A stretch of DNA of 63,978 nucleotides, the filler included, from an uncultured bacterium (GTDB taxonomy: Bacteria; CAYJRR01): NCBI GenBank assembly GCA_964372275.1. It is 3 parts of 3 records of this genome, joined end to end, with 100 filler letters (N's around TTAATTAATTAA, not from the genome) between each part and the next. Parts side by side here need not be neighbours in the genome. Positions count along the whole stretch, not along the records: positions 30,642 to 60,933 come from CAYJRR010000052.1; 2 more parts are not named here. One strand, written 5' to 3'. Position 1 is the stretch's first letter, and each line of letters starts with the position of its first letter. This document shows, in pieces, positions 28,119-37,841 of this stretch. The notes under the pieces were generated by a model. It had not been told where the DNA came from. It saw nothing but the letters and a program-made list of their open reading frames with translations, and did not search any database. The translations under genes were made by a program, and so were the position numbers.

Positions 28119-30541
28119 TCAGCGGAAATCGCGCGACCGCAAAGGCAGCGCCGGCATGGCGACGGTCGCGGCAGGATCGGCTTCGGGCGCGTCGGGGACG
28201 GCCGGCTCGAACGACGAGACCTGCACGTTGATCGCCTTCCCGGCGCGCTCGACGCGGCCGGCGGCGACGACGAACAGCGCGTCGCGGGCGAGGGGGCGGT
28301 GGGCCTCGTAGACCTCCGGAGGGATCACCAAGTTCAGGAACCCCCACTCGTCCTCCAGCGTGGCGAAGACGACGTTCCCGATCGTCGGGGGGCGCTGCCG
28401 GACGATCGCCATCCCTCCGACCAACACCTTCTGGCGGTGGCGCGCGGCGGCCAGCTCCCGCGAGGAGAGGACGCCGCGCCGCCGGAACCCGTCGCGGAAG
28501 AAGGAGACCGGGTGCGCCTCGATCGACAGGCCCGTCGCGTCGTAGTCGGAGAGGACCCGCTCCCGCGTCGACAGCGCCGCGAACGCCACCTCCCCCGGGC
28601 GCTCGCCGTGCCCGCCGTCCGGGAACAGCGCCCCGTCGGCGCGCGGGCCTTCCTCGCCGGCGCGGCCGGCGAGGGGCGGACGCTCGCGCAGGGCGGCCCA
28701 GAGCGCGTCGCGGCGGGAGAGTCCCAGCGGGCGGAAGGCGTCGGCCGCCGCGATCCGCGCGATCCCCTCCCGCGACAGGCCCGACCGGCGCACGACGTCG
28801 TCCCACGACGTGAAGGGGGCGCTCGCCCGGAGCCGCTTCTCCGCTTGCTCGCCGAGACCGCGCACGTGACGCAGTCCCAGCCGCACCGCGTGGAGGGGGC
28901 CGTCCGCCGCCGTCACCCGACCGCCGCCCTCCCGCGGTTCGAGCGTGCAATCCCAGCGGCTCTTCGTGACGTCGACCGGGCGCACCTCGACGCCGTGCCG
29001 AAGGGCGTCGTTGACGAGGGTGTGCGCGGCGTAGAACCCCATCGGCTGGGAGTTCAGGAGCGCGGCGGTGAAGGCGGCGTGGTGGTGCACCTTGAGCCAG
29101 GCCGAGGCGTAGACCAGGAGCGCGAACGAGGCGGAGTGGCTCTCGGGGAATCCGTACCCCGCGAAGCCGGAGAGCTGGCGCACGATCTCCTCCGCCGCCG
29201 GGCGCGAGATCCCCTTCTCCGCCATCCCCGCGAGCAGCCGGCCGTGGAGTTTTTCCAACTCCTCCGTCGACCGCTTGTGCGTCATCGCGCGGCGCAGCGC
29301 GTCGGCCTCGCCGGCGGAGAACCCCGCGGCGGCCATCGCCAGGCGGATCGCCTGCTCCTGGAAGACCGGGACGCCGTAGGTCTTCTCCAGGATCGGCCGC
29401 AGGCAGGGATGGGCGTAGACGACCGGCTCCTTCCCCCACCGGCGGCGGAGGAACGGCTGCACCATCCCGCCGGTGATCGGGCCGGGACGGATCAGCGCGA
29501 TCTCGATCACCAGGTCGTAGAAGCAGCGCGGCCGCAAACGCGGCAGCATGTTCATCTGCGCCCGGCTCTCGATCTGGAAGACGCCGACGGTGTCGGCTTC
29601 GCCGATCGCGTCGTAGACGCGCGGGTCCTCCGCCGGGATGGTGGCGAGCGAGAGGTCGATCCCTTCGTGCTCGCGCACCAGGTCGAGCGCCTTGCGGATC
29701 ATCGTCAGCATCCCCAGACCCAGCACGTCGATCTTGAGGATCCCGACCGCCGCCAGGTCGTCCTTCTCCCAGGCGACGACGGTGCGCCCCTCCATCGTCG
29801 CGTTCTCGGTCGGCACCAGCTCGTGGAGGGGCCCGTGGGTGATGGCGAACCCGCCCGAATGGATCCCCAGGTGCCGCGGGAACCCGAGCAGCTCACTCGC
29901 GCGGGCGCGGACGTGTTCGGTCGGGTGGTCGACGCGGGACTCGGGCAGCCCGAGCGCCTTGGCCGTCTCGCGCGCCGCGAGGCGATGGCGGTAGGTGATG
30001 ACGTTGGCGACCATGGCGGCGCGGTGCCGGCCGTAGCGCTGGTAGAGGTGCTGGATCACCTCCTCGCGCCGTTCGTGCTCGAAGTCGACGTCGATGTCGG
30101 GCGGCTCGCCGCGTTCCACCGAAAGAAATCGTTCGAAGAGGAGCCCCATCCGCACCGGATCGATGGCGGTGATCCCCAGGACGAAGCAGACGGCGGAGTT
30201 GGCGGCGCTCCCCCGCCCCTGGCAGAGGATCCCCTTGGCGCGCGCGAAGACGACGATCTCCCAGACGGTGAGGAAGTAGGGGGCGTAGTCGAGCGCCTCG
30301 ATGAGCTGTAGCTCGTGCGCGAGCTGGGCGCGGACCTCCGGCGGCACGCCGGCCGGGTAGCGCTCGGCCGCCCCTTTCCAGACCTGCTCCGTGAGCCAGC
30401 CGAACGCGGTGTAGCCCGGCGGGAGCCACTCGTCCGGATAGCGGTAGCGGAGCGAGTCGAGCGAGAAGCGGCACGCCGCCGCCAACTCCACCGAGCGCTC
30501 GATCGCCTCGGGATGGTCGGGAAAGAGCGCCGCCATCGCGG
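28119..30541 (-). CDS. dnaE2: error-prone DNA polymerase DnaE2, 5'-truncated at the contig end
   Basis: QGRGSAANS, PDIDVDFEH, GVFQIESRAQM, YGFPESHSASFA and C-terminal SRDFR. Confidence 0.95.
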
Positions 30542-30641
30542 NNNNNNNNNNNNNNNNNNNNNNNNNNNNNNNNNNNNNNNNNNNNTTAATTAATTAANNN
30601 NNNNNNNNNNNNNNNNNNNNNNNNNNNNNNNNNNNNNNNNN
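30542..30641. other. artificial contig linker
   Basis: N-run, TTAATTAATTAA, N-run. Confidence 0.98.
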
Positions 30642-32698
<2,057 letters not shown>

Positions 32699-32727
32699 CC
32701 GTCCACGCGTCGCGCGGCGGCCGGAGG

Positions 32728-33528
32728 TCAGATATCGCTGGTGAGGACGAAGCGCCAGTCCGCGTCGTCCATGCGGTGCTGGATCACGGTCGCGGTCGCC
32801 GAGGGACGGACGCCGGTCGACTCCAGCTCCGTCGCCAGCGGATCGCCGGCGGGGGCGCAAAGCATGTGCACGGAGCCGGGCTGCGGCTCGCGCAGGCGCG
32901 GATCGGCGCAAGGGCCGAACTGCACGTGGAGGAGCGGCATCGGCCGGCCGGTGGAGGCGAGCACGATCTCCTTCACGCCGGCGAGAGAGAGGAATCCGGT
33001 CGGGCCGCGGTGGCGCTCCACGAGGGGCTGTGCGCGCCGCATCGCCGGTCCGTCGAGCGAGTAGATGCGAAGCGTCGCCGCGGCCGACAGTCGCGCCCAA
33101 CGGAAGCGTCCGAGCAGGCGCGCGATGCGGTTCGGCTCCCCGCCGGCCGGATCCATGGAGACGGCGTAGCCCCTCCGACACCGCCAGTAACCCGGGACGA
33201 ACCCGCGCGAGAGGATTCGCAGCGGCAGGCGCCGGCCCCGGCCGTCGGGGTGCACCTTCAAGTCGCACAGGTACCAGCACTCCCGGGTGACGCCGCCGAT
33301 CGGGACACGGCGCACGACCCCCGCTCCCACGGCCAGCGCGCGGTCGCCGTCGGCGACGACGTAGTAGTGGAGATCGCTCCCGAGGCGGTCGAAGAACGAG
33401 AAGTAGTCGGCGCCGTGATCGATGCGAAAGGAGTCCTCGCCGAGCGGATAGGTGGCGGTGCCTTCGAGCGTCTGGATGCGCGGACCCCAGGCGGCGCGGT
33501 CTCGCGTGAAGACGCGGTGAATCCTCAC
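32728..33528 (-). CDS. GNAT-fold N-acyltransferase
   Basis: WYLCDLKVHPDGRGRRL acyl-CoA-binding motif A; GTGA overlap with the upstream gene. Confidence 0.75.
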   Translation of the reverse strand: MRIHRVFTRDRAAWGPRIQTLEGTATYPLGEDSFRIDHGADYFSFFDRLGSDLHYYVVADGDRALAVGAGVVRRVPIGGVTRECWYLCDLKVHPDGRGRRLPLRILSRGFVPGYWRCRRGYAVSMDPAGGEPNRIARLLGRFRWARLSAAATLRIYSLDGPAMRRAQPLVERHRGPTGFLSLAGVKEIVLASTGRPMPLLHVQFGPCADPRLREPQPGSVHMLCAPAGDPLATELESTGVRPSATATVIQHRMDDADWRFVLTSDI

Positions 33529-34238
33529 GTCCAGGTCCGGCGTTCCGGGATTTCGCAGAACGACCGCCGGGCGCGGGCCCTCCACAGCCCCTCGTAGAGT
33601 CCGTCGAAAAGCGTCGCCCCCATCCGGAACCCCTGTTCGATGTAGTAGCGCCCTTCGGCGCCTCCGCGACGCCAGCTCCCCTCCAGAACCTGGAAGAAGT
33701 CGTCGGAGTGCCGCACGTCGAGCGCCTCGTGCAGGTTGTAGTGGATCAGCCGATCCCGGGTCAGCCAGCCGTTGTCGACGATTCCACGCCCGATCCACGA
33801 GGAGATCTCGGAGAACATCCGCTCGATCATCCCCATCACGGCGCACGACACCAGGTGGTCGTCGAGCACGCAACAGCCGGAGAGGGCCGTGTTGAAGATC
33901 CGCACTTCCGGACAGAGCGTGCGTCGCTCGATGTCCGCGTCGTCGACGCCTCCGAGGCGGTGGAGCAGCTCGCGAAACGTCGCGCCGTGCGTGATCCGCG
34001 TGTCCCCTTCCCCGTGCTCCTCCCAGACGTTCCGGAGGATCCCCATCCGCAGCTCGGGCGAGGGGATCTTCGCCGCGAGAGCCGCCATCGGCCGGCTGAA
34101 GAAGACCACGGCGAAGTAGAACTGGATCTGGGTCTCGACGAAGTCGGCCTTGTCGAATCGTTTTTCGCGCAGCGCGGCGAAGTAGGGGTTCGAGCGCCAG
34201 GGCACTTCGTTCAGGATCGCCGCGATCAGGTCGTTCAT
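33525..34238 (-). CDS. heme-oxygenase-like diiron oxidase (CADD/PqqC-like iron-containing redox enzyme)
   Basis: EEHG...H, IER and HEALDVRH ligand pattern; ATGA overlap with the upstream gene. Confidence 0.85.
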   Translation of the reverse strand: MNDLIAAILNEVPWRSNPYFAALREKRFDKADFVETQIQFYFAVVFFSRPMAALAAKIPSPELRMGILRNVWEEHGEGDTRITHGATFRELLHRLGGVDDADIERRTLCPEVRIFNTALSGCCVLDDHLVSCAVMGMIERMFSEISSWIGRGIVDNGWLTRDRLIHYNLHEALDVRHSDDFFQVLEGSWRRGGAEGRYYIEQGFRMGATLFDGLYEGLWRARARRSFCEIPERRTWT

Positions 34239-35206
34239 TCTTTCGTTCCGACGTGGATCCGCTCGTAGAAGAGACTGCGGTCCGATGCGAGCATGGCGGC
34301 GCCTCGCGCGTCGTCCCAGCGAAAGCCGGGGAGGTGGCGGCGGACGTCGCGACGGTTGTTGAGTTGCCGCACCAGCACGACCGTACCCGGTCGGGTCCGG
34401 GCCGCGATCGCCCGCCCGGTGGCGCCGGCCGAAGCGTCGTCCATCCAGTCGAAGACGTTCGACAGGTGCACGAGCGCGCAGGAGGCGGCGAGGTCGGCCG
34501 CCGACTCGAGCGTGCCGACGACGTACTCGAAGCGGAATCCGGCCGGCGGCGCGGCGAGGAACGGCGGAAGGGATGACGGATCGTCGAGGTAATGCCCGAG
34601 AAGAACGTGGTGGAGGAACGGATTGACCGCCGCGTCGTCGCGAGCCAGTCCACGCTCGATGGCGCGGCGGAAGTACGCCGGATAGGAGCCGCGCTCGGCG
34701 TGCTGTGTGGCGGCCGTTCCGAAGATGGCGTGCAGGAGATCGTCGGAGAAGAACAGCTCGAAGGCGACCGGCCAGTACCGGCAGGCGGCCACGTCCGCGA
34801 GGACGGTCTGCCGTTCGCCGGGCGTCGCACGGAAGAACCGTCGCCACGTCTCGCCGCCGGCGACGAAGTCGTGGACGAATCCGCGAAGACCGCGGAAGAG
34901 CGATTCGAAGTTCCCCTGCTGGCTCAGGTCGTCGGCGCCGCTTTCTCCGATCCCGAACGCTCGCTTCCGCACGTCGGCGGGGAGCGCCAATGCGTCGACC
35001 TTGCGGCGAACGTGCGCAAGCTGCGCCGGATTCGGGTCGACGAGCGCGAAGCTCGCGTCCGGGAAGAGCGCCTGCAAGGAAAGGGCGGTGCAACCTCCCG
35101 AGGCGACCAGCAGCGCTCGTCGCGGTGGCTCGATCTCGGCCAGGACCATCGCCTCCAACCGCGGGTCCTCCCGCACCACCGCGAACTGGAGAGGGTTGTC
35201 GCGCAC
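34235..35206 (-). CDS. DUF3419/BtaA-like SAM-dependent (3-amino-3-carboxypropyl) transferase
   Basis: REDP, VASGGCTALSL, VDPNPAQL and LSNVFDWM motifs. Confidence 0.8.
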   Translation of the reverse strand: MRDNPLQFAVVREDPRLEAMVLAEIEPPRRALLVASGGCTALSLQALFPDASFALVDPNPAQLAHVRRKVDALALPADVRKRAFGIGESGADDLSQQGNFESLFRGLRGFVHDFVAGGETWRRFFRATPGERQTVLADVAACRYWPVAFELFFSDDLLHAIFGTAATQHAERGSYPAYFRRAIERGLARDDAAVNPFLHHVLLGHYLDDPSSLPPFLAAPPAGFRFEYVVGTLESAADLAASCALVHLSNVFDWMDDASAGATGRAIAARTRPGTVVLVRQLNNRRDVRRHLPGFRWDDARGAAMLASDRSLFYERIHVGTKE

Positions 35207-35301
35207 CGGGCGATAGTACCTTCACCTCCGCCGAATCGTCCGGAACGTGCGCGGTCGCTCACGGCCACTCACCGCCACGCCGGCGCTGGTAGACTGGACG
35301 T

Positions 35302-35712
35302 GTGGTCTGTCCGTCCTGCGGCGGGGAGGTGGTCGGCGGGGTGGGCGGCGCGTGCGCGCGCTGCGGCCGGCCGCCGATGAACGTCGCCGTGACGCCGCAG
35401 GAGCACGTCGTCCGCGTGGGTCAGGGGACGGCGCTCACCCGCGTGCCGGCGATGCCCCGGCTGACGTGGGGCCTGTTCGTCGCGGGATGGTCGGTCTGGT
35501 TGGGGCCGCTCGCGTACTATCTCTACCTTCGGTCCACCCCCACGCCGGCGTCGTCCTGGAGAGGGACCGGTCTCGTCGCCGTCTCCATCGTCGCCTTTCT
35601 GATCCAGGCGGTGCTTTGGGCCTCGGCCTTCTTTTACAGTCGGCTCGTCACCTCGGACGAGATCGCGGAGGAGGCCGAGAAGACCTCCTCCGGCACCGAG
35701 CGCGGATCCTGA
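35302..35712 (+). CDS. small membrane protein with N-terminal zinc-ribbon
   Basis: CPSCG...CARCG followed by two TM helices. Confidence 0.6.
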   Translation: MVCPSCGGEVVGGVGGACARCGRPPMNVAVTPQEHVVRVGQGTALTRVPAMPRLTWGLFVAGWSVWLGPLAYYLYLRSTPTPASSWRGTGLVAVSIVAFLIQAVLWASAFFYSRLVTSDEIAEEAEKTSSGTERGS

Positions 35713-35812
35713 CGGTCCGCCGCCACTCGGGGCGGGACATCGCGGTCTCCGATGGTAACGGGAGTGCCCCCGTCGCCGGCGCGCAACCGCTCGGGAAAAC
35801 TGGGCTTCTGCA

Positions 35813-35827
35813 TGGCTTGGAACCTGC
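35813..35827 (+). promoter_or_regulatory. sigma54-type motif TGGCTTGGAACCTGC
   Basis: GG-N10-GC upstream of ATG 35841. Confidence 0.45.
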
Positions 35828-35840
35828 ACCACCGAGGCGT

Positions 35841-36326
35841 ATGGATCGACACGCGGAGGTTGGAGTCGGGGCGCGCCGTTCGCCGTGGCGGGCGTTGATG
35901 GTCGTGGCGACGCTCGTCGCCCTTTCCACGTCGACGATCGCCCGGTCGGCACAGGAGCCGACGACGGCCGGCGCAGCCGCGGAGACGGGTGTCGGCGTCG
36001 TCGAAGGGATCGTCTACGCCCTCGCAGGTCCGGTTGCGCTCGGCTACGGCCTCGTTTTCACCGCCGCGGGCGTGGCTGCCGGGACCGCGGCCCTGGTCGT
36101 CGCCGGTCCGGGAATCCTCGCCACCACCGCGGCCGTCGGACTCGGTGCGGTGGCGGTCGGCGGGATCGTGGTCGGCGGTCGCTACCTCTACGTCGCCTAT
36201 CGCACCGGCACGATCGGCGCGCTCTGGGACTACGCCCGCGGGCGAACCCCGGCCGAGTCGGCGGAGCGCGCCCGCCGCGCCGTCGACGCGGTCAACGCCG
36301 GCGCGCGCGCGTCGAACTGTCCGTAG
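35841..36326 (+). CDS. exported Gly/Ala-rich hydrophobic hypothetical protein
   Basis: GAGG RBS, signal peptide, long GxxxG-rich hydrophobic stretch. Confidence 0.6.
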   Translation: MDRHAEVGVGARRSPWRALMVVATLVALSTSTIARSAQEPTTAGAAAETGVGVVEGIVYALAGPVALGYGLVFTAAGVAAGTAALVVAGPGILATTAAVGLGAVAVGGIVVGGRYLYVAYRTGTIGALWDYARGRTPAESAERARRAVDAVNAGARASNCP

Positions 36327-37175
36327 CTAGCCGATCGCGGCTGCCGCGTACGGCGTGTCGTCGGCTCCGACCCCGATCCCCGGCCGGGCGCGGAACGCCC
36401 GTTCGCGATGGTCGGTCAGACCGCGGAACCAGGCCAGCCCCGGGAGGCGCGCGATCGTCTGGTCGATCCGCGCCGCCACCTCGGCCCCCTCGGCGCCGCC
36501 CAGCACGTAGCGGAGGATCCAGTGCATCTCCGCGTCGGGCTTCACCCCGCCTCCGACCGGCAGCCAGAAGTGCCGGAGGACGAAGCCCGTCAGCCGCTGC
36601 GCGGCGCGCGGCGCGAGCTCGACCCTCGCCTTGTTGTAGTAGAACGAGAAGTGCCGCCGTTCGTCCTTCGCGAGCCGCCGCAAAAGCTCGGCGAGGACCG
36701 GATTTCGCGTCCGCCGCGCGAGCAGGCCGTACCCTTCCAACGTCGACAGCTCCGAGACCGCGCCGTAGGTCAGGTAGACGGCGTGGAAGTGCCGCGAGAT
36801 CTGGCAAACGAGCGAGGCGCCCAGGTCTTTCGCCCATTCGCTCCATGGAACTTTCCGGAGGACGTGCGACGCGCGGTCCTCCGGAAATGCCCGGCCGCAC
36901 GCCTGCAGGAATCGCCGGAGGGCGCGGCCGTGGAAGAACTCTTCGTACGCCCAGCAACTGAGGAAGGCGGTCGTCTCGGGATCTTCGATCGCGCAGGTCG
37001 AGAGGATGCTTCGCAGGTAGACGACGGTGTGCGCCTCGATGTCCATCATGTAGGTGAGGCAACGCGCCTCGTCGTCGGTCAACGGGTGGTGCGCCGCCGC
37101 CGACAGATCGAGATCCTCGATCTCCACCTTCTTCGAATGGCGCAAGTACCGCTCGAGATCGAACTCCGACGCCAT
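36327..37175 (-). CDS. ferritin-like diiron protein (acyl-ACP desaturase-like)
   Basis: DIE, WAYEEFFH, EL..L.GY and DERRH: two ExxH motifs. Confidence 0.85.
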   Translation of the reverse strand: MASEFDLERYLRHSKKVEIEDLDLSAAAHHPLTDDEARCLTYMMDIEAHTVVYLRSILSTCAIEDPETTAFLSCWAYEEFFHGRALRRFLQACGRAFPEDRASHVLRKVPWSEWAKDLGASLVCQISRHFHAVYLTYGAVSELSTLEGYGLLARRTRNPVLAELLRRLAKDERRHFSFYYNKARVELAPRAAQRLTGFVLRHFWLPVGGGVKPDAEMHWILRYVLGGAEGAEVAARIDQTIARLPGLAWFRGLTDHRERAFRARPGIGVGADDTPYAAAAIG

Positions 37176-37259
37176 GATCGTCCCCCCAGGCGATGCATCC
37201 GCACTGTAATACGCGGACCCGCCGCAGACGGATCCCGATTGTGCGATGATCCGGGTGCC

Positions 37260-37841
37260 ATGGCCCTTTCCGGTCGAGACTTGTTGGAGTCGAGCGTGCT
37301 CGATCCGGCGGGGCGGAGCGTTCGCCTACGCGAGGTCGCGGCCGGAAAGCCGGCGGTCTTCGTCTTCCTGCGCCACTTCGGGTGAATGCTCTGCCAGGAG
37401 GAGGCCGCGGCGTTCGCCGCTCGCCTCCCGGAGATCCGCGCGGTCGGCGCGGTCCTCGCCCTGATCGGGAACGGCCGCGCGGACCAGGCCGCCGCCTTTC
37501 GCGATCACTTCGGTCTCTCGGAGGTGCCGCTCTTCACCGATCCGTCCCGTGCCACCTACCGCACCGCCGGCTTTCGGCGCGGCGTGCGCCACCTGGTGAC
37601 CGCGCGCTCGCTCAAGAACTACGCGCGGGCGTTCCGGGCCGGTTTCCGCGAAGGCAAGATCCAGGGCGACCCGCTGCAGATGGGGGGCGCCGTGGCGCTC
37701 GATCCGGCCGGTCGTCTGCTGTGGCAGCACGTGGCGGCGGTCGCCGGCGACCTCGCCGATCCGGGCGCCGCGCTCGCCGCCCTCCGAGGGGAAGTGGGAC
37801 CGGATGGCGCCCCTGCGGGATCACGCGGCGCGAAACGCTAG
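37260..37841 (+). CDS. peroxiredoxin-like (AhpC/TSA_2, PRXL2/SelU-type) selenoprotein; UGA at 37383-37385 read as Sec
   Basis: FVFLRHFG-TGA-MLC continues in frame into the FTDP...Y and GDPLQMGG family motifs; hairpin downstream of the TGA. Confidence 0.85.
37400..37428 (+). promoter_or_regulatory. putative bacterial SECIS hairpin
   Basis: GGAGGC-c-GCGGC-[GTTC]-GCCGC-tc-GCCTCC; apical loop starts with GU, 26 nt after the UGA. Confidence 0.7.

Follow-up and report, generated by a model that had tools for sequence, protein, structure and literature searches.

An operon of three overlapping genes, encoding a DUF3419 S-adenosylmethionine (SAM)-dependent transferase, a heme-oxygenase-like diiron oxidase/oxygenase (HDO) and a predicted tandem-GNAT acyltransferase, lies in the genome of an uncultured bacterium (CAYJRR01; NCBI GenBank assembly GCA_964372275.1). 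The stretch of DNA analyzed, referred to below as the window, comprises 63,978 nucleotides (nt) with a G+C content of ~71% and joins three parts of three records of this genome, the operon being situated in the part derived from CAYJRR010000052.1 (positions 30,642 to 60,933). All three genes are open reading frames (ORFs) on the minus strand: g1 (34235-35206; 323 amino acids, GTG start), g2 (33525-34238; 237 amino acids) and g3 (32728-33528; 266 amino acids, GTG start). As the preliminary description of this DNA had reported, they are joined by four-nucleotide overlaps, ATGA at 34235-34238 (minus strand), common to the g1 stop and the g2 start, and GTGA at 33525-33528 (minus strand), common to the g2 stop and the g3 start. 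The GTG at 35206 was taken as the start of g1 because homologs span 98-100% of the protein in most of the 120 matches listed; homologs of g3 are mostly 260-270 amino acids long, and the GTG at 33528 therefore fits as its start. Read from the sequence, these overlaps, together with the tight spacing observed elsewhere, are best explained by one co-translated operon.

The promoter of this operon would have to be held by the 95-nt divergent intergenic region at 35207-35301. The "TACTAT box" of the preliminary description does exist as a hexamer (35213-35218, minus strand), 6 nt ahead of the g1 GTG; a scan of 32500-36400 for two-hexamer sigma-70 promoters returned none, and TACTAT is retained as a candidate element only.

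Conservation of the trio

An alignment of g3 was scanned over one genome per prokaryote species (185,579 species genomes), with 149 relatives confirmed; 80 of these loci were kept and sorted by tblastn with the window proteins. The full trio is found within 4.3 kb in 70 of the 80 loci, which excludes chance, and it is a conserved, self-contained cassette. The order g1-g2-g3 on one strand (type A) accounts for 53 loci, where g1 is 35-54% and g2 47-67% identical to the window proteins, and the order g2-g1-g3 (type B) for 15, where g1 and g2 are 24-35% and g3 44-53% identical; one Chlamydiota locus shows g3-g1-g2, and in one further locus the genes are arranged divergently. Contig ends truncate seven loci, and three are incomplete despite enough flanking DNA (L011 with g3 alone, L037 and L057 without g2). 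With starts estimated from alignments, the type A genes are separated by a median of 6 nt between g1 and g2 (range -4 to 53, n = 48) and 8 nt between g2 and g3 (range -32 to 194, n = 39). In Candidatus Uabimicrobium amorphum (L045:6368-7882), g1 and g3 are separated by a 504-amino acid ORF that matches no Pfam family, which extends the trio to 4.3 kb.

According to the record labels, some of which look doubtful for metagenome-assembled genomes, the trio is spread over eight phyla: Poribacteria (19), Pseudomonadota, Planctomycetota and Cyanobacteriota (12 each), Myxococcota (10), Bdellovibrionota (8), Chlamydiota (2) and Acidobacteriota (1). Clustering of all ORFs in the 80 loci revealed no further gene conserved across lineages beside it; shadow ORFs over the trio aside, the next-largest clusters reach at most 19 loci, and the flanking clusters checked (c8, c9, c13 and c16) are confined to Poribacteria-labelled or unlabelled loci. 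Transporter, regulator, methyltransferase, pqq-like, translation, mccA- or mccB-like genes are likewise not conserved beside the trio in these loci, and the earlier statement that no btaB, pqq or folate genes adjoin the operon agrees with domain searches, ORF clustering and tblastn. A tblastn search with g3 against a plasmid collection gave no match, nor did g1, g2 or g3 match any PADLOC defense family.

The trio is not restricted to bacteria. A scan of IMG/VR recovered it in two giant-virus contigs of 40 kb and 957 kb (L089:4741-7705 and L090:4934-7492; G+C of the fetched loci 28% and 32%). The viral g3 homologs (E 3e-46 and 1e-41) are accompanied by a DUF3419 gene, scoring 70 and 93 bits, and by an HDO gene, scoring 28.6 and 38 bits. 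Each viral trio has a poly(A) polymerase gene of the mimivirus type on one side and a TFIIS gene on the other. All six metal ligands described below for g2 are kept in the viral copies. A second viral scan, queried with giant-virus g3, found only the query itself. Conservation in other genomes, the check that had been proposed together with the initial observation, is thus borne out by 70 of 80 loci, eight phylum labels and two giant-virus contigs.

Families and folds of the three proteins

The g1 protein matches Pfam DUF3419 with 60 bits (cut-off 28.2) in two stretches, the best of them covering profile positions 129-385 of 385, and contains the motifs REDP (residues 12-15), SGGC (36-39), DPNPAQ (57-62) and LSNVFDW (248-254). 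To our knowledge, BtaA is the sole DUF3419 enzyme with known function; it acts on diacylglycerol, transferring the 3-amino-3-carboxypropyl group of SAM, and forms with BtaB the pair of diacylglyceryltrimethylhomoserine (DGTS) synthesis. The AlphaFold2 model of g1 (mean predicted local distance difference test, pLDDT, 95) displays a class I SAM-dependent transferase core with a large helical insert, for which many methyltransferases are tied at Z 11-12.5 in fold comparison, while the aminocarboxypropyl transferase MccD (5fcd) appears at rank 49 with Z 10.9. Foldseek gave no match to this model at E<=0.001, and a search of PDB sequences returned nothing meaningful.

Canonical BtaA was sampled as 29 proteins from 401 sampled Pseudomonadota genomes, which score 324-395 bits against DUF3419 over 408-489 amino acids, versus the 60 bits and 323 amino acids of g1. 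In a quick IQ-TREE phylogeny of 59 rows (43 trio-linked sequences, 14 canonical BtaA and 2 associated with phosphoenolpyruvate (PEP)-utilizing enzymes, the type A and canonical BtaA rows being random samples), canonical BtaA forms one clade with a support of 100, and a branch with a support of 98.4 in the approximate likelihood ratio test SH-aLRT splits all 43 trio-linked g1 from canonical BtaA plus the PEP-enzyme-associated subfamily. Trio-linked g1 and BtaA have EDP, SGGC, N59, DW, R280 and Y314 in common, which points to the same SAM-binding core. Differences are found at other positions, where W, H, G, I and L-D of BtaA are replaced by R12, Q62, E101, R105 and S249-N250 in trio-linked g1, so that REDP stands for WEDP and charged residues occupy hydrophobic BtaA positions. 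The partners also differ: where BtaA is paired with the methyltransferase BtaB, g1 is accompanied by an HDO and a GNAT. Of the six canonical BtaA loci examined, three show the btaA-btaB arrangement, with a class I methyltransferase as the next gene downstream, and no methyltransferase was present among the ORFs tested in the remaining three. Neither ORF clustering nor tblastn detected a btaB-like gene beside the trio, be it in the window or across the 80 loci; three btaB-like proteins used as tblastn queries produced weak generic matches only, of which two fell in the 80 loci and one in the window at a distance of several kb from the trio. A second DUF3419 gene was not found in four of the five trio-bearing genomes checked.

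By its bit score, its length, its position in the tree and the lack of an adjacent btaB, g1 is ruled out as a BtaA orthologue, and it is assigned to the DUF3419 superfamily as a member outside the BtaA lineage. The term "BtaA-like" of the preliminary description consequently holds for the family and the listed motifs, and fails where orthology is concerned. Given the separation in the tree, the name "SAM-diacylglycerol 3-amino-3-carboxypropyl transferase" carried by g1 homologs in databases is unsupported for this subfamily. Studies combining btaA, betaine lipids and metagenomes reportedly exist, and since automatic annotation labels g1 homologs as a betaine-lipid enzyme, btaA counts made by annotation could be too high. 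A third DUF3419 subfamily (193-219 bits) is encoded beside genes of PEP-utilizing enzymes (L081:1486-2553 and L120:1288-2571); the member in L081 also adjoins a condensation domain of a non-ribosomal peptide synthetase (NRPS), and DUF3419 enzymes therefore occur in natural-product contexts as well.

The diiron ligand set ascribed to g2 (EEH...H, E, HEALDVRH) is present at E73/E74/H75, H84, E139 and H170/D174/H177, in a protein that matches Pfam PF14518 (Haem_oxygenas_2) with 57.4 bits (cut-off 28.9). Placed by alignment to HrmI and CADD, the ligands E74, H84, E139, H170, D174 and H177 are kept in all 73 trio-linked g2 sequences and compose a 3-His/3-carboxylate set, the motif described for most HDOs (2026 mini-review, PMC13108848, section 4). 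A profile built from 30 homologs retrieved solved structures of the same superfamily and ligand pattern by remote similarity only, namely HrmI (E 2.7e-7), the 4-aminobenzoate synthase 9pj4 (5.7e-6), BesC (8e-4) and CADD (6e-3). The nearest of them, HrmI, is a lysine N-oxygenase and aligns with g2 without gaps through the WEEHGEG...H segment. Type A g2 proteins further show invariant arginines at R49, R69, R94, R106, R113 and R140, and g2 is accordingly classed, on sequence grounds, as a distinct HDO subfamily with its own invariant arginines. Two more specific identities were rejected: a CADD or self-sacrificial 4-aminobenzoate synthase, as NCBIfam TIGR04305 gives 19.8 bits against a cut-off of 200 (30.7 bits for a type B homolog), and the pyrroloquinoline quinone (PQQ) enzyme PqqC, as this weak CADD match is the sole NCBIfam match at E<=0.01 and no pqq-like cluster is conserved alongside. 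"Pyrroloquinoline-quinone synthase" (PqqC) is, for its part, the automatic name on many g2 homologs in JGI.

With g3, Acetyltransf_9 gives 17.3 bits (cut-off 25), and no Pfam GNAT model reaches its cut-off; the L028 homolog reaches 24.4 bits for Acetyltransf_1 (cut-off 20.7). The consensus acyl-CoA motif of GNATs, R/Q-x-x-G-x-G/A, appears in g3 as the variant R97-G98-R99-x-x-P102 within VHPDGRGRRLP. The AlphaFold2 model (pLDDT 92.8) is a two-lobed GNAT, resembling in VIA-align the glucosamine N-acetyltransferases 4zm6 (chain B, Z 14.2 over 209 residues) and 5kf1 (Z 12.0), the clavulanate-pathway protein 2wpw (Z 12.7) and two N-myristoyltransferases (2p6e, Z 12.7; another, Z 12.3). These tandem-GNAT structures align over 204-219 residues, though at 5-14% sequence identity. 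Foldseek gave 252 matches to the model at E<=0.001, with GNATs, N-myristoyltransferases and related proteins among the matches listed, and ESM Atlas places g3 among GNAT clusters. The protein is thus a GNAT by its predicted fold and not by Pfam score, so that the GNAT assignment of the preliminary description is upheld by the model, its acyl-CoA motif surviving as a variant only. The g3 family, with 272 clusters at E<=1e-30 in a set of 1.84 billion representatives, is small and clearly delimited, and it conserves an N-terminal motif, YPLG.D.F.IDHG.DYFAFF.RLG, particular to it as far as seen; among 82 sequences 29 positions are near-invariant, 22 of which are also kept by both giant-virus copies. 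Two deviating records were not used as evidence: P0407, a single ORF with an HDO and a g3-type GNAT, has a linker like out-of-frame text and is probably a frameshift artefact rather than a fusion, and P0366 carries only the C-terminal half of the HDO ahead of a g3-type GNAT.

Probable substrate and possible function

The trio combines known enzyme superfamilies in a way that is new and widely distributed. In the reading that we favor, with a probability of roughly 45%, it would constitute a self-contained, horizontally mobile biosynthetic pathway acting on a polar, probably amino-acid-like small molecule. The g1 enzyme would bind SAM and alkylate the substrate; g2 would use its two-iron centre and O2 to oxidize it, by N-oxygenation or else by oxidative C-C cleavage or desaturation; and g3 would acylate an amine at the expense of acyl-CoA, either finishing the product or protecting the producer. 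Catalytic competence of the three is favored by the conserved metal ligands of g2, by the core that g1 has in common with BtaA and by the near-invariant positions of g3. By analogy with its distant relative BtaA, the group moved by g1 would, with slightly better than even odds, be 3-amino-3-carboxypropyl, which we prefer because of the SAM core in common, methyl being a less probable but still plausible choice. Comparable logics are known in other systems. In streptozotocin biosynthesis, the SAM-dependent transferase SznE prepares the amino-acid substrate that the HDO SznF then N-oxygenates, as could happen here; SznF has extra domains, SznE is an ordinary methyltransferase and not a DUF3419 protein, and no GNAT partner is known there. 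Microcin C likewise unites a SAM aminocarboxypropyl transferase, a tailoring enzyme and a GNAT acetylation for self-protection (MccD/MccE), its tailoring enzyme being a pyridoxal phosphate-dependent decarboxylase instead of an HDO. The match of g1 to MccD does not surpass those to ordinary methyltransferases, and no mccA/mccB-like genes are conserved beside the trio.

Several observations argue for a substrate that is probably polar and amino-acid-like rather than a lipid: R12, E101 and R105 occupy in g1 the positions of W, G and I in canonical BtaA; type A g2 has its invariant arginine set; the nearest solved HDOs (HrmI, 9pj4, BesC and CADD) act on amino acids or make 4-aminobenzoate; and another DUF3419 subfamily stands in an NRPS context. 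A further hint comes from a membrane FA_desaturase-family gene that heads seven cyanobacterial type B operons, directly upstream of the trio, and makes them four-gene operons (L028:5167-6171 and the matching genes in L036, L044, L048, L055, L070 and L076). In the three copies tested (L028, L055 and L076), the best curated match of this membrane diiron partner is the L-arginine hydroxylase GntB, scoring 69-78 bits where the cut-off is 380, and GntB is therefore only its nearest named relative, although an amino-acid hydroxylase and not a lipid desaturase.

The same neighborhoods can be read the other way, and they belong to the points that weigh against our proposal. FA_desaturase-family genes directly upstream of the trio, in eight loci once a Bacteriovoracaceae type A locus (L066:5432-6325) is added, are a lipid hint, as are a PEMT-family gene directly upstream in L014, a lysophospholipase-like Hydrolase_4 gene after g3 in two Uabimicrobium genomes (L039 and L045), and the N-myristoyltransferases among the best fold matches of g3; besides, the only characterized DUF3419 enzyme acts on diacylglycerol. 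Since methyltransferases and MccD all fall at Z 10.9-12.5, the fold of g1 cannot tell which SAM group is moved and does not separate methyl from aminocarboxypropyl transfer. The two gene orders, with g1 and g2 only 24-35% identical between types A and B, may moreover differ in substrate, and every chemical step of the proposal is inferred, from the group transferred and the substrate to the order of the steps and the product.

The lipid hints are what a lipid head-group pathway would draw upon, in which g1 would act in a BtaA-like manner on diacylglycerol or an aminolipid, and g2 and g3 would oxidize and N-acylate a homoserine-type head group to yield a new membrane lipid free of phosphorus; the Pfam family and core motifs that g1 has in common with BtaA also agree with it. 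We consider it unlikely, as all trio-linked g1 fall on their own side of the 98.4-support branch, arginine, glutamate and arginine replace hydrophobic BtaA residues, no btaB is adjacent in the window or the 80 loci, and the FA_desaturase partner comes nearer to an amino-acid hydroxylase than to a lipid desaturase. In addition, the extra neighbors (desaturase, PEMT, hydrolase) occur in only 11 of the 70 loci, and the core chemistry therefore needs just three genes.

Patchy, horizontally mobile spread (149 places in 185,579 species genomes, eight phyla and giant viruses) in varying genomic contexts would also suit a detoxification or catabolic cassette, by which an incoming toxic amine or amino-acid antimetabolite from hosts, prey or competitors would be alkylated, oxidized and N-acetylated with nothing being built. 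Fold matches of g3 to the tabtoxin resistance protein (Z 11.8), to aminoglycoside acetyltransferases and to BAR (Z 10.1) lend themselves to this idea, to which we give somewhat less credit than to the lipid pathway: simple detoxification does not usually involve the consumption of SAM or a diiron enzyme that activates O2, neither a transporter nor a regulator is conserved alongside in the 80 loci, no PADLOC defense family was matched, and the HDOs listed as validated in PMC13108848 (section 4) are all biosynthetic.

The viral copies bring in modification of macromolecules, in which the trio would install and tailor a mark on transfer RNA (tRNA), ribosomal RNA or protein, in a pattern like that of known aminocarboxypropyl, hydroxyl and acetyl modifications. 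There is chemical precedent in the SAM-dependent transfer of aminocarboxypropyl groups to RNA and in GNATs that acetylate RNA or protein. Giant viruses and bacteria have few small-molecule pathways in common and many translation-related functions, the trio is placed between transcription genes in both viral contigs, and N-terminal acetyltransferases are found among the fold matches of g3. It is nevertheless the least probable of the alternatives, and quite improbable, since Pfam reveals no nucleic-acid-binding domain in g1, g2 or g3, no translation gene is conserved beside the bacterial trio, and no validated HDO in PMC13108848 (section 4) acts on RNA.

Returning to biosynthesis from an amino-acid-like substrate, the spread over eight phylum labels and two giant-virus contigs suggests that the product is broadly useful at the interface of organisms. 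The wider claim that the trio is a mobile module of many bacterial phyla and giant viruses making a metabolite class not yet described is one we regard as doubtful. Speculatively, and by analogy with O-alkylation of the BtaA type, g2 could N-hydroxylate an amine or guanidine whose N-OH group g1 would O-alkylate with the aminocarboxypropyl group of SAM, leading to an aminooxy amino acid of the canaline/canavanine type that g3 would N-acylate. If true, such an aminooxy product could serve as an antimetabolite or a signal between predators and their prey, or between a host and its symbionts or viruses.

That no characterized pathway contains this trio, as the preliminary description had it, is in line with our literature searches, which covered neither subscription-only papers nor supplements and found no published pathway with the three enzymes. 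Searches on DUF3419 returned nothing about the trio, and no paper was found that combines heme-oxygenase-like, diiron, GNAT and methyltransferase, or 3-amino-3-carboxypropyl and heme-oxygenase-like. Of more than 10,000 HDOs, only about a dozen have been assigned a reaction according to PMC13108848 (section 4), a mini-review that makes no mention of acetyltransferase, methyltransferase or lipid; a paper on mangotoxin mined HDOs beside ATP-grasp ligases only. With ~2.5 kb, three genes and no conserved neighbor needed, both an HDO reaction not yet known and a second DUF3419 activity are therefore directly testable.

Neighboring genes and other sites in the window

A terminator scan detected a lone terminator-like site, inside g2 on the opposite strand and within chance expectation. 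Rfam gave no match at E<=1 across 32400-37400, intergenic region included, and only two tRNAs over nine loci, hence no riboswitch clue. Across the intergenic region from g1 lies a divergent ORF (35302-35712, plus strand) of 136 amino acids, with a CxxC...CxxC motif and hydrophobic stretches and without Pfam match. Farther upstream are a ferritin-like diiron gene (36327-37175, minus strand; FA_desaturase_2 25.2 bits, Rubrerythrin 25.9 bits) and a SelL-related redox gene of the AhpC/TSA_2 type (37386-37841, plus strand), which were not counted in the operon because the divergent ORF lies in between; no equivalent of either was found around the trio in the 80 other loci.

At its other end the operon faces secA (30665-32698, plus strand), recognized by matches to five SecA Pfam domains, whose stop at 32698 confirms the convergence on g3 noted earlier. 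The SecA protein is ~64-65% identical to those of all five trio-bearing genomes compared, and so does not place the organism nearer to any one of them. A run of N (~30540-30600) truncates two genes, secA at its N-terminus and a DNA polymerase III alpha-type gene (28119-30536, minus strand) at its end.

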